NCBI GenBank assembly: GCA_017433415.1
Contig: JAFRHI010000009.1
Coordinates: forward strand, 1,723-65,722
DNA: 64,000 nt
Origin: Bacilli bacterium
GTDB lineage: Bacteria > Bacillota_I > Bacilli_A > RF39 > UBA660
Reading direction: 5' to 3'
The translations under genes were made by a program, and so were the position numbers. Shown in pieces: positions 32,646 to 49,376 of the stretch; within the stretch, counting starts at the first letter, position 1; each line of letters begins with the position of its first letter. The notes beneath the pieces were generated by a model that was not told the DNA's origin, did not search any database, and saw only the letters and a program-made list of their open reading frames with translations.

Positions 32646-32723
32646 TTGTAAAAGTCAGGATTTTTAAAAGATAATTTCTTTAAAAGTAGAATTTAAAATT
32701 ATATTATATTAATGAGGTGGACT

Positions 32724-33299
32724 ATGTATAATCGAAAAAAAGAATTAAGAAAAAATATAATATATAGTGTAGTAATATTATTACTAGCAGTTTTTTCTAC
32801 ATATTATATATATAATAAATTTCAAGGTGATAGGGAAATTGATTTTAGTTCAGAATCACTTGATGTTATTTATCATGAGGGTACTGGAGATAAAATTACT
32901 ATTTCAAAAATGACACCAGTTACTGATTCAGTAGGATTATCTTCTAAATCATATAATGTGTCATTAAAAAACAATTTAACAGAAGATGTTTTATATACTA
33001 TTAAAATAGTAGATGATTTAGAACAGATTGAAGCAGATAGTTGTGGTGATATGCTAATACCTAAAGACAATATAAGAATTTCTGTTAAAATAAATAAGCA
33101 TGAGAATGCTATATATCAATTAGATGAATTAGATGATGGTATATTACTTCATGATACTATTGATGCTTTAGATACTGCAGATATTGCTATTAGAGTATGG
33201 ATTAAACAAGATAGTAATGTACCTGCTGGTAGTAAATTACATTATCATGGTAAAATTCAAGTTGTTGAAGAAGATGGAATGATAGCAATTAATAAATAG
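32724..33299 (+). CDS. Membrane-anchored hypothetical protein
   Basis: N-terminal TM, beta-rich domain, GAGGTGG RBS. Confidence 0.65.
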   Translation: MYNRKKELRKNIIYSVVILLLAVFSTYYIYNKFQGDREIDFSSESLDVIYHEGTGDKITISKMTPVTDSVGLSSKSYNVSLKNNLTEDVLYTIKIVDDLEQIEADSCGDMLIPKDNIRISVKINKHENAIYQLDELDDGILLHDTIDALDTADIAIRVWIKQDSNVPAGSKLHYHGKIQVVEEDGMIAINK

Positions 33300-33307
33300 G
33301 TGATTGG

Positions 33308-33784
33308 ATGGAAATTGATTTAGGACTTTTACATAGTAATGCAATAGAAAATATTGATATTAGTGGTAGTTATTTTCTTGATAAGGCTTATTATGAAAAT
33401 ACAGATATTATAGATTTGAAGGAAATAAAAGTTAAGGGAAATATTACTAAAAAGGATACAGAAGAAGGTTTGAAAGATTATATAGAATGTTCTATTTCTG
33501 GTACTATGGTAATAGAAGATTCTATTTCACTTGAGCCTATAGACTTTCCTTATGAGATATTTTATTCGGATTTTCTTTGGGAAAACTGGTTAAAAAGTGA
33601 AAATATACTTGATATTTTTAGCTTTTTGTGGGAAAATATTGTACTAGAGGTCCCCTTACAATATACTAAGGTCGAAGATCTCAGTAAATTTCATGGGGAT
33701 GGATGGAGATTGGTTAGTGAAGATGATTTAGCACATAATAACAATCCATTTAGTGAGTTATTAAAAGATATAGAAGAGGAGTGA
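33308..33784 (+). CDS. YceD/DUF177 family protein
   Basis: SLEP...ENIVLEVP...NPF..L motifs; conserved position upstream of rpmF. Confidence 0.85.
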
Positions 33785-33788
33785 TAAG

Positions 33789-33998
33789 ATGATGAAATTA
33801 GACATTCAATTGTTTGCAGTTCCTTTCCGTAAAGTTTCAAAAACAAGAAAGAGAATGAGAAGAAGTCACAATGCTATGGAAGTTCCTGGTATGACAAAAT
33901 GTCCTAGTTGTGGCGAAATGATTAAGCCACATAGAGTTTGTCCAAAATGTGGTAGCTACAAAGGAAAAGTAGAAGTTGTTAAAGAAAAAGCAGAATAG
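33789..33998 (+). CDS. rpmF: 50S ribosomal protein L32 with an N-terminal extension
   Basis: [18 protein letters not shown]...CPSCG...PHRVCPKCG zinc ribbon, preceded by MMKLDIQLF. Confidence 0.97.
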
Positions 33999-34010
33999 TC
34001 TGCTTTTTTT
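33986..34010 (+). terminator. Intrinsic terminator of yceD-rpmF
   Basis: AAAAGCAGA/TCTGCTTTT hairpin with T-run. Confidence 0.75.
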
Positions 34011-34062: not shown

Positions 34063-34728
34063 ATGATAGTTGGTTTTAGTGGTAAAAAGATCAGTATTAT
34101 TGAAATTCTTTGTATTATATTAATTTTATTGATTCTTATTGTTATGGCTATTAGTGGAATATCTTCTTTAATAGGTAAGGAAAATATTAATATGTGGAGT
34201 CAAGAGGAAGATTTGCTAATTGCTGAAGCAGAAGAATATGTTATGAAAAACTATAGAGATGACTTGGTTATAGGTGATAGTTTTGATATTCAACTTAGTG
34301 AATTAGAAAGCAAAAATTATTTACATAATAAAGTTTCTGATGTTTGTATTGATAAATCTTATATTTCGGTATATAAAGATATAAATAATGAATATGTATA
34401 TGTTCCTTTTATCAATTGTCTTGTTAATAATTATAGTGATAATAATTTATTATATCCAGTTATTGATGCATCTTTGGATGATGATAATCTTTTAATTAGT
34501 GTTAGAGAAATAAACCATAATCAAAAAGTGTTTATTTACAGTTATATGGTAGAAATATATAAAGGAGATAATATGCTTTTTGATATAAAATCAAATGATA
34601 TTAATTCAAGAGAATATATAAAAAATATTGATTTAAGTACTTATAGAAGTGATAATGAAAAATTAAAAATAATTGTTTCAGCAGAAAACAGTATTGGTTT
34701 TTATACCAAGACAATTATCAATAGTTAA
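34063..34728 (+). CDS. Type IV pilin-like protein with a degenerate prepilin motif
   Basis: KKISIIEIL followed by a long hydrophobic helix; A..YV and L..L....YL motifs typical of Firmicute pilin-like proteins. Confidence 0.55.
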   Translation: MIVGFSGKKISIIEILCIILILLILIVMAISGISSLIGKENINMWSQEEDLLIAEAEEYVMKNYRDDLVIGDSFDIQLSELESKNYLHNKVSDVCIDKSYISVYKDINNEYVYVPFINCLVNNYSDNNLLYPVIDASLDDDNLLISVREINHNQKVFIYSYMVEIYKGDNMLFDIKSNDINSREYIKNIDLSTYRSDNEKLKIIVSAENSIGFYTKTIINS

Positions 34729-48371: not shown

Positions 48372-48445
48372 GTTTGACGCCTCATGCTCAAACCGCATTG
48401 AAAAGGTAAAAACGTATTTACGTACCTTAAGAGCGAGTCTTAGTT
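48372..48445 (+). ncRNA. L21 leader (ribosomal protein leader RNA)
   Basis: Structured 5' UTR of rplU with CCGCA, AGGT/ACCT stem and GCGAGTC. Confidence 0.65.
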
Positions 48446-48465
48446 TAAAAAAAGGAGGTAAATAT

Positions 48466-48768
48466 ATGAACGCTGTAATTAAAGTTGGTGGAAAGCAATA
48501 CTATGTTACTGAAGGTTCTGAAATTTTCGTTGAAAAGTTAGAATGCGAAGCAGGTGATGTAGTTAACTTTGATCAAGTATTAATGCTTGACTCTAAAGTT
48601 GGTAATCCTTATCTTACTAATGCTACTGTTCAAGGTGAAGTTTTAAAGAATGGTAAAGCTAAGAAAATTAAAGTTTTCAAATATAAAAGTAAAGATAGAT
48701 CTAATCGTAAGACTCAAGGACATAGACAACCTTATACAAAAATTAAAATTACTAAGATTAATGGTTAA
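48466..48768 (+). CDS. rplU: 50S ribosomal protein L21
   Basis: GGKQY and GHRQPYT motifs; AAGGAGG RBS before ATG 48466. Confidence 0.97.
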   Translation: MNAVIKVGGKQYYVTEGSEIFVEKLECEAGDVVNFDQVLMLDSKVGNPYLTNATVQGEVLKNGKAKKIKVFKYKSKDRSNRKTQGHRQPYTKIKITKING

Positions 48769-48770
48769 TT

Positions 48771-49073
48771 ATGATTGATGTAAAAGTTGTTAAAGAAAAA
48801 GCTAAATACAAAAAAATTACAATTCTTGGTCATGCATTATATGATGATTATGGAAAAGATATTGTATGTAGTGCTTGTAGTAGTATAGTTACAACTACAG
48901 TAAATGGTATTTTAGCACTTAATAAGGATAGTCTAAGTTACTTAGTTAGTAAGAAGGGTATGAGTATAGATATTAAAAGTACTGATACTACTACACAAAT
49001 ACTAATTAATAATATGGTTAGTCTTTTAAAGGAACTGGAAGGTAATTATCCAGAAAATATTCAAGTAAAATAA
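48771..49073 (+). CDS. prp: Ribosomal-processing cysteine protease Prp (YsxB)
   Basis: GHA...G.DIVCSA catalytic His/Cys; between rplU and rpmA. Confidence 0.95.
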   Translation: MIDVKVVKEKAKYKKITILGHALYDDYGKDIVCSACSSIVTTTVNGILALNKDSLSYLVSKKGMSIDIKSTDTTTQILINNMVSLLKELEGNYPENIQVK

Positions 49074-49085
49074 GGAGGAAAGTTT

Positions 49086-49376
49086 ATGAAATTTTTGAAA
49101 TTAGATATTCAATTGTTTGCACACCATAAAGGTCAAGGATCAACATCTAATGGTCGTGATTCTGCAGGACGTAGACTTGGAGCTAAAGCAGCTGATGGTG
49201 AATTTGTAACAGCAGGTTCTATTATATATCGTCAAAGAGGAACTAAAGTTTTCCCTGGTGTAAATACTCGTCGTGGTAATGATGATTCTATTTATACTAC
49301 AGTTGACGGAATTGTTAAATTTGAACGTTTAGGAAGAGATAAGAAAAGAGCTTCAGTTTATCCTGAAGGTAAATAG
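49086..49376 (+). CDS. rpmA: 50S ribosomal protein L27 with Prp-cleaved extension
   Basis: KLDIQLF|AHHKG, NGRDS and RQRGT motifs. Confidence 0.98.

Follow-up and report, generated by a model that had tools for sequence, protein, structure and literature searches.

The ribosomal protein L32 encoded in the window (the whole 64,000-nucleotide stretch of DNA that was analysed) is probably a second ribosomal protein trimmed by the cysteine protease Prp before ribosome entry. In the reading favored here, which is likely to be correct, L32 is made as a precursor with a 9-residue propeptide that is cut by Prp at Phe9|Ala10, an event that would time its entry into the large subunit. The traits that support L32 as a second Prp substrate, as an earlier note on this DNA had proposed, are (i) a ribosome-binding site placed before the leader, (ii) conservation of the leader, (iii) its fit to the Prp motif, (iv) covariation at leader position P4, and (v) a predicted complex with Prp. 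The proposal fits less well in one subclade of the family, which departs from the motif at P3.

The rpmF and rplU-prp-rpmA loci

The source genome of the window comprises 1.21 Mb with 28% G+C in 31 contigs (assembly 91.5% complete) and has a single L32 gene, the rpmF of the window. Since no other L32 gene is present in the genome, the precursor must yield a working protein. The elements relevant to processing fall into two groups, one around rpmF and one around rplU-prp-rpmA.

33308..33784, + strand: yceD/DUF177-like gene, directly 5′ of rpmF (open reading frame; weak Pfam YceD match, E 9.8e-4, under the curated cut-off)
33776..33781, + strand: Shine-Dalgarno box GAGGAG, 7 nt 5′ of the rpmF ATG
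33789..33998, + strand: rpmF, the leader-bearing L32 gene (Pfam L32p model starts at residue 10)
33789..33815, + strand: L32 leader MMKLDIQLF, 9 codons (predicted Prp cut after Phe9, 33815|33816)
33816..33998, + strand: mature L32 (AVPFRK..., 60 residues, CxxC...CxxC zinc ribbon) and stop codon (Pfam PF01783, residues 10-61, E 5.5e-24)
33983..34010, + strand: terminator-like hairpin and T run at the rpmF end (1 found vs 0.1 expected in shuffles)
48381..48450, + strand: L21 leader RNA 5′ of rplU-prp-rpmA (Rfam RF00559, 38 bits vs gathering score 36)
48466..48768, + strand: rplU, encoding L21 (Pfam PF00829, 2.9e-35)
48771..49073, + strand: prp, encoding the cysteine protease Prp, with His21, Asp30, Cys33, and Ala as residue 35 (PF04327, 1.6e-22)
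49086..49376, + strand: rpmA, encoding L27 (Pfam L27 model starts at residue 12)
49086..49118, + strand: L27 leader, 11 codons, preceding the start of the Pfam L27 match
49119..49376, + strand: mature L27 and stop codon (Pfam PF01016, residues 12-89)

L32 scores 84.5 bits against PF01783, whose curated cut-off is 21.3, and is thus a bL32; its zinc-ribbon residues C38, C41, C51, and C54 are invariant among 45 aligned sequences and define it as the zinc-binding type. Prp scores 79.9 bits against PF04327 (cut-off 27), which places it in the Prp family, and it matches the S. aureus Prp structures 4PEO/7KLD at 3.8e-10. Residues G20, H21, D30, and C33 are invariant in 40 Prp sequences, the last three aligning with His22, Asp31, and Cys34 of S. 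aureus Prp. What the earlier note had read from this DNA is borne out on several counts, namely that rpmF encodes an N-terminal extension like that of L27 behind a strong ribosome-binding site, that no ATG or ribosome-binding site is found at the usual L32 start (no ATG separates the leader from the GCA codon), and that prp is encoded at 48771.

The ribosome-binding site of rpmF falls inside the final codons of the yceD-like gene. The yceD-rpmF pair is flanked by two + strand open reading frames (32712-33299 and 34063-34728) with hydrophobic N-terminal segments and without an assigned family. The L21 leader RNA is the sole Rfam match at the gathering threshold in the 64-kb window, and no tRNA or rRNA genes were reported there by the same search at that threshold.

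Translation, conservation and distribution of the leader

The rpmF start and the rplU-prp-rpmA region were retrieved from 76 other genomes of the same family and parsed, and the rpmF start was also parsed in 22 genomes of the same genus and in 7 genomes of other families. In leaderless relatives, ATG-GCA-GTN-CC begins a few bases behind a Shine-Dalgarno sequence (AGGAG, GGAGTG, or GAGGTG); such an ATG-GCA start directly behind the Shine-Dalgarno sequence is present in 19 leaderless family genomes and the 7 other-family genomes. In leader-bearing genomes, the equivalent Shine-Dalgarno sequence precedes the leader ATG by a few bases, and GCA lies 8-9 codons further on. From this placement in relatives with and without the leader, the latter corresponds to an in-frame insertion of 8-9 codons after the start codon. 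The residues past the junction are identical to those of leaderless L32, whose start is M|AVP. The pattern of substitution indicates that the leader is translated, because upstream of P2 its amino acids are conserved while codons change synonymously.

Across the 79 L32 leaders tabulated, Leu at P6, Gln at P3, and Phe at P1 are each present in 79/79, with varying codons at these invariant positions (TTA/CTA/CTT for Leu, CAA/CAG for Gln, and TTT/TTC for Phe). The remaining positions are nearly as constrained: P5 is Asp, Asn, or Glu in 78, P4 is Ile, Leu, or Val in all 79, and P2 is Leu or Met in 78, with Gln at P2 in a single case (G240). The leader measures 8-9 residues before AVP/GALP in all 79 and is thus an N-terminal extension within the 8-12 residues typical of Prp substrates. 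In the S. aureus Prp-peptide structure, hydrophobic pockets receive P1, P2, P4, and P6, and only a small P1′ residue is accommodated; the P3 Gln is buried and hydrogen-bonded, P5 is occupied by an Asn with a helper role, and substrates with Ala or Glu in place of the P3 Gln are no longer cut (PMC9261936). The window leader, L-D-I-Q-L-F|A, matches the Prp motif from P6 to P1′ and, at the level of sequence, satisfies every specificity position published for Prp in the available text of PMC9261936 and of the review PMC9405229.

The search of other N-termini for the motif, which had been suggested earlier, leaves only the two ribosomal genes. A six-frame scan of the 1.21-Mb genome with [DNE][ILVM]Q[LMFIY][FY] returned 66 matches, 13 of them with at least 30 open codons downstream, and only those in rpmF and rpmA sit just behind a start codon and precede Ala. 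The peptide likeness of the L32 and L27 leaders exceeds chance. Five relatives give one motif match each where the L32 leader is absent and two where it is present, one unrelated extra match aside. That match, LNIQSFG at G166:C7:200791-200810 in a genome without the L32 leader, carries Ser at P2 and is thus an unlikely substrate.

The leader is found in 58 genomes representing 26 of the 39 genera of the family examined, and L32 starts as M|AVP, leaderless, in 19 genomes from the other 13. All 77 family genomes have the L27 leader, and Prp adjoins rpmA in each of the 76 relatives fetched. Because 13 genera are without the L32 leader yet keep Prp and the L27 leader, the L32 leader is dispensable rather than essential to the family. 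The leader is present in 119 of the best 120 protein-database homologues of L32 (74-95% identity). The relatives, members of a large family placed in the RF39 group, are named as uncultured gut or rumen “Bacilli,” “Mollicutes,” and “Tenericutes” bacteria and are represented by metagenome-assembled genomes, one of which is Candidatus Onthousia faecipullorum, Bacilli incertae sedis.

A scan of 401 genomes of the class, from 31 families, with the pattern Q-x-F-[AG]-x-P-x4-S-K matched 17 of 50 family genomes in addition to the source genome's own match. Outside the family, the scan gave 3 pattern matches, none of which is an L32 gene, and the reversed control pattern gave 5. Among the sampled genomes, all of one class, the L32 leader is confined to one family; a phylum-level draw supplied same-class genomes only (0.5-3.8 Mb) and nothing new, as the phylum seems to be single-class in the taxonomy used. 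A profile of the first 32 residues of L32 searched against 1.84 billion representative proteins retrieved 134 matches at E ≤0.001, of which 28 align from the leader, and all 28 of these show the family-type mature N-terminus (the library is without taxonomy). The same representative library contains P0140, a predicted protein of 136 residues in which a stretch similar to the N-terminal region of L32 occurs four times in tandem (...ALPLHKVSRTRKSENK...).

On a weakly resolved tree of Prp and mature L27 from the 39 genera, the distribution of the leader requires six changes, and well-supported branches force at least two of them. The leader is clustered on this tree (0 of 500 shuffles are as low in changes), and gain is indistinguishable from loss.

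The nucleotide identity of the two leaders is as first described, with 25 of 26 nt shared between 33793-33818 and 49096-49121 and a single differing base (GAC/GAT). At shared leader residues, codons are shared at a rate of 66% within a genome (241/364) and 65% between genera (12150/18569), and from this rate 7/8 identical codons are expected in ~17% of cases. Codons are thus shared no more often within a genome than between genera, and the 25/26 identity is at the level that codon bias gives and adds nothing beyond the identity of the peptides. The accompanying suggestion that the leader was possibly copied from rpmA is not sustained by this comparison, nor does the comparison support a recent copying event or gene conversion linking the two leaders (0.66 within vs 0.65 between genera).

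Covariation with Prp and the predicted complex

The L32 and L27 leaders of the same genome share 4.92 of 6 positions, as opposed to 4.55 when shuffled; the comparison uses a single genome for each genus (n=26), and sharing this high arose in 8 of 10000 shuffles. Most of this signal resides at P4, where the pairs are Ile/Ile in 19 genera, Leu/Leu in 5, and mixed in 2. The same position covaries with Prp residue 35 (window 48873-48875), located two residues past the catalytic Cys33, in a set of 76 genomes (one genome was left out, its motif having been missed by the search pattern). Gly35 is present in 10/76 genomes, with Leu at P4 of L27 in 10/10, and Ala or Ser35 in 66/76, with Ile at P4 of L27 in 64 and Leu in 2. 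The L32 leader follows the same trend: P4 is Leu in 7/7 genomes with Gly35, and the 50 with Ala or Ser35 comprise 47 with Ile, 1 with Val, and 2 with Leu at this position. Two g115 genomes are mismatched, combining Leu at P4 of L32 with Ser35 in Prp and Ile at P4 of L27.

Five leader-bearing genera, located in different parts of the tree, show the Gly/Leu combination. After correction for kinship, 2-3 independent pairs remain on branches with good support (the best tree gives 5), and none runs in the opposite direction (sign test p 0.25-0.5); a sign test needs six, so that these pairs are too few for a phylogenetically corrected statistical proof of covariation. Beyond the family, S. aureus Prp has Gly at the residue-35 site together with Leu at P4, and the site is Ala in S. 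mutans Prp and Ser in S. pneumoniae Prp. The L27 leader has Leu at P4 in S. mutans, S. oralis, and S. pneumoniae (PMC9405229). A general Gly35-Leu rule therefore fails for the S. mutans (Ala) and S. pneumoniae (Ser) Prp structures, both with P4 Leu, and the rule is local to the family, given these Ala/Ser-site streptococcal enzymes. There, residue 35 of Prp is a candidate for the determinant of substrate specificity.

In one subclade (LF|GALPARR), which accounts for 13 of 401 family genomes and 8 genera, L32 carries Gly at P1′. Among its 13 L32 leaders, P3 is Gln in seven, Thr in four, and Cys in two, so that 6/13 depart from the Prp motif at this position. The L27 leader was read in 10 of these 13 genomes, including all six with Thr or Cys at P3 of L32, and its P3 residue is Gln in nine of them and Cys in the tenth. 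Accordingly, 5 of the 6 departing L32 leaders sit beside an L27 leader that keeps its P3 Gln, and strict P3 covariation between the two leaders was not found, with 5/6 unmatched. Either Prp tolerates small P3 residues in this subclade or the departing L32 leaders are no longer cut. In the one exception, G946, Cys also occupies P3 of the L27 leader (NICLF|A), a departure from the otherwise invariant Gln. The occurrence of Cys at P3 of the essential L27 leader in that genome is offered in favor of small-residue tolerance of the subclade Prp.

A complex of the Prp dimer with residues 1-40 of pre-L32 was predicted from self-built alignments alongside 3 controls. It scores 0.65 (runs 0.65, 0.69, 0.65), and the best control reaches 0.03. 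In a benchmark of this score, the mark was reached by 58/80 solved complexes and 2/110 mismatched pairs. At least 73% of contacts are common to the runs; the partner pLDDT is 48-51, at which the fold of the partner is uncertain. Residues 1-12 of L32 are predicted to contact Prp residues 20-23, 30, 33-34, and 36-38, and Prp residue 35 is predicted to touch L32 residues 4 and 6, which correspond to P6 and P4. The high score may reflect likeness to the solved Prp-peptide complex 7KLD. As a model, the predicted complex puts the L32 leader in the Prp active site and supports binding.

Proposed processing, known systems and alternatives

In the proposed mechanism, the propeptide MMKLDIQLF, which carries the recognition string of the same genome's L27 propeptide, would be bound in the active-site cleft of the genome's single Prp and cut between Phe9 and Ala10, freeing L32 with an AVPFRK... 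N-terminus. Leaderless L32 is expected to show the same N-terminal Ala after removal of the initiator Met, as E. coli L32 does. The uncut leader would keep the N-terminal tail of L32 from engaging 23S rRNA until Prp acts, as has been proposed for L27, so that Prp would set the time at which two proteins join the large subunit. It may be inferred that Prp cuts the L32 leader, that the cut precedes assembly, and that it has a gating role.

A broader interpretation is possible, albeit doubtful. The Prp propeptide would be a portable assembly-timing tag that was put on bL32 in this family and gained or lost several times, such that Prp licenses the uL22/bL32 step as well as the late L27 step of 50S assembly, the S4 pocket (residue 35) and both leaders coevolve, and the system forms a bacterial, sequence-specific counterpart of the m-AAA/MrpL32 checkpoint. 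In E. coli, bL32 adjoins uL22, uL2 binds only once both are in place, and domain IV of 23S rRNA can misroute without uL22 and bL32 (PMC11723945).

The closest known system is the processing of pre-L27 by Prp (YsxB) in the Bacillota, which involves the same protease family, with prp between rplU and rpmA in both. The short propeptide, the motif L-(D/N)-(I/L)-Q-(L/M/F)-F|A, and a free Ala N-terminus are also shared, the cut being predicted in the case of L32. Unlike L27, bL32 is a zinc-ribbon protein that lies beside uL22 and not at the peptidyl transferase center (PMC11723945). Furthermore, the L27 leader is universal in the family (77/77 genomes), whereas that of L32 occurs in one family and in part of its genera. 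Known or proposed Prp substrates comprise L27, the phage 80alpha proteins gp46 and gp47, and FlhB (PMC9405229). The scaffold (gp46) and capsid (gp47) proteins are non-L27 proteins that bear the same N-terminal motif and use the host Prp (PMC9405229); these are phage structural proteins, whereas in the present case the borrower is one of the cell's own core ribosomal proteins, the second after L27. FlhB was likewise proposed as a substrate from the likeness of its N-terminal motif but, unlike L32, is a flagellar export protein, and no Prp covariation is reported for it in the available text of the review (PMC9405229). The same text mentions L32 once, as a tunnel protein (PMC9405229). A literature search found no report of L32 as a Prp substrate, motif scans in supplementary material lying outside that search.

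Removal of an N-terminal region from a bL32 protein before large-subunit assembly is known from mitochondrial MrpL32 (bL32m), a member of the same protein family (PMC5438985). There, the ATP-dependent membrane-bound m-AAA protease removes 71 residues, the folded zinc domain setting the stop, and the presequence also serves import, whereas the L32 leader has 8-9 residues and a sequence-specific cysteine protease is proposed to act on it (PMC5438985). Judged as an analogy, the likeness of the L32 leader to MrpL32 is convergent. Ubiquitin-fused eukaryotic ribosomal proteins such as eS31 are likewise precursors with an N-terminal part (PMC5027506). Unlike the L32 leader, the eS31 tag is a whole folded ubiquitin handled by other proteases in another domain of life. 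Ubiquitin is removed from such ribosomal fusions.

Work on Prp as an antibiotic target assumes that the enzyme has a single essential substrate in the cell, L27. If L32 is cut as proposed, a natural second ribosomal substrate would imply that the propeptide can move between ribosomal proteins. The 26 genera with and 13 without the leader, all of which have Prp and the L27 leader, provide a ready comparison for leader function, and the three-way covariation of Prp residue 35 with P4 of L27 and of L32 names a testable specificity determinant. From the parallel with MrpL32, control of large-subunit assembly seems to recur at the N-terminal tail of L32.

Other readings of the leader differ in how much of the evidence they accommodate. 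A leader that is translated but kept, as a lineage-specific extension of mature L32 that merely resembles the L27 propeptide, is unlikely: the conserved positions are those that Prp reads (P6, P4, P3, P1, and a small P1′) and form no new structural motif, P4 tracks the Prp pocket residue, and past the junction the sequence is that of leaderless L32. As judged from known ribosome structures, L32 inserts its N-terminal tail into rRNA, and a hydrophobic nonapeptide would be hard to fit on this tail. What does agree with a leader unread by Prp is the LF|GALP subclade, in which P3 is not Gln in 6/13 leaders even though L27 retains it in 5/6. Removal by a protease other than Prp, for which the second L27-processing enzyme reported to rescue processing in S. 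pneumoniae TIGR4 offers a precedent (bioRxiv 10.64898/2026.08.10.744006), is somewhat less probable still, as the leader fits its own genome's Prp motif, varies together with a residue of Prp, and is placed in the Prp active site by the predicted complex. Very little weight falls on a wrong start, with initiation at an ATG or TTG at P2 or with the leader as untranslated 5′ sequence. P2 is encoded by ATG in 32 of the 79 leaders and by TTG in 11, as in the window, but by the non-start codons TTA, CTT, CTA, or CAA in 36/79, and the ribosome-binding site stands before the leader ATG with none 5′ of P2; on these two grounds a start at P2 is rejected. Conserved amino acids encoded by varying codons upstream of P2 argue against an untranslated sequence.

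Equally improbable is the idea that the leader offsets the loss of methionine aminopeptidase, with Prp exposing Ala in place of Met removal. The source assembly has no PF00557 match (controls 14/14) and no tblastn match, and the usual adk-infA slot for map is empty in this genome, but PF00557 is found in 227/231 genomes of the order, among them a congener as well as genera that carry the leader. Aminopeptidase loss is therefore rejected as a general reason for the leader. The congener carries its methionine aminopeptidase gene ~31 kb beyond rpmA on the same contig, and the source contig ends ~19 kb beyond rpmA. Because the congener gene lies past the point at which the source contig ends, its absence from the source genome is probably an assembly gap. 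On contig C19 of the source genome (C19:44183-45161), beyond the window, adk and infA lie 109 nt apart with map missing between them.
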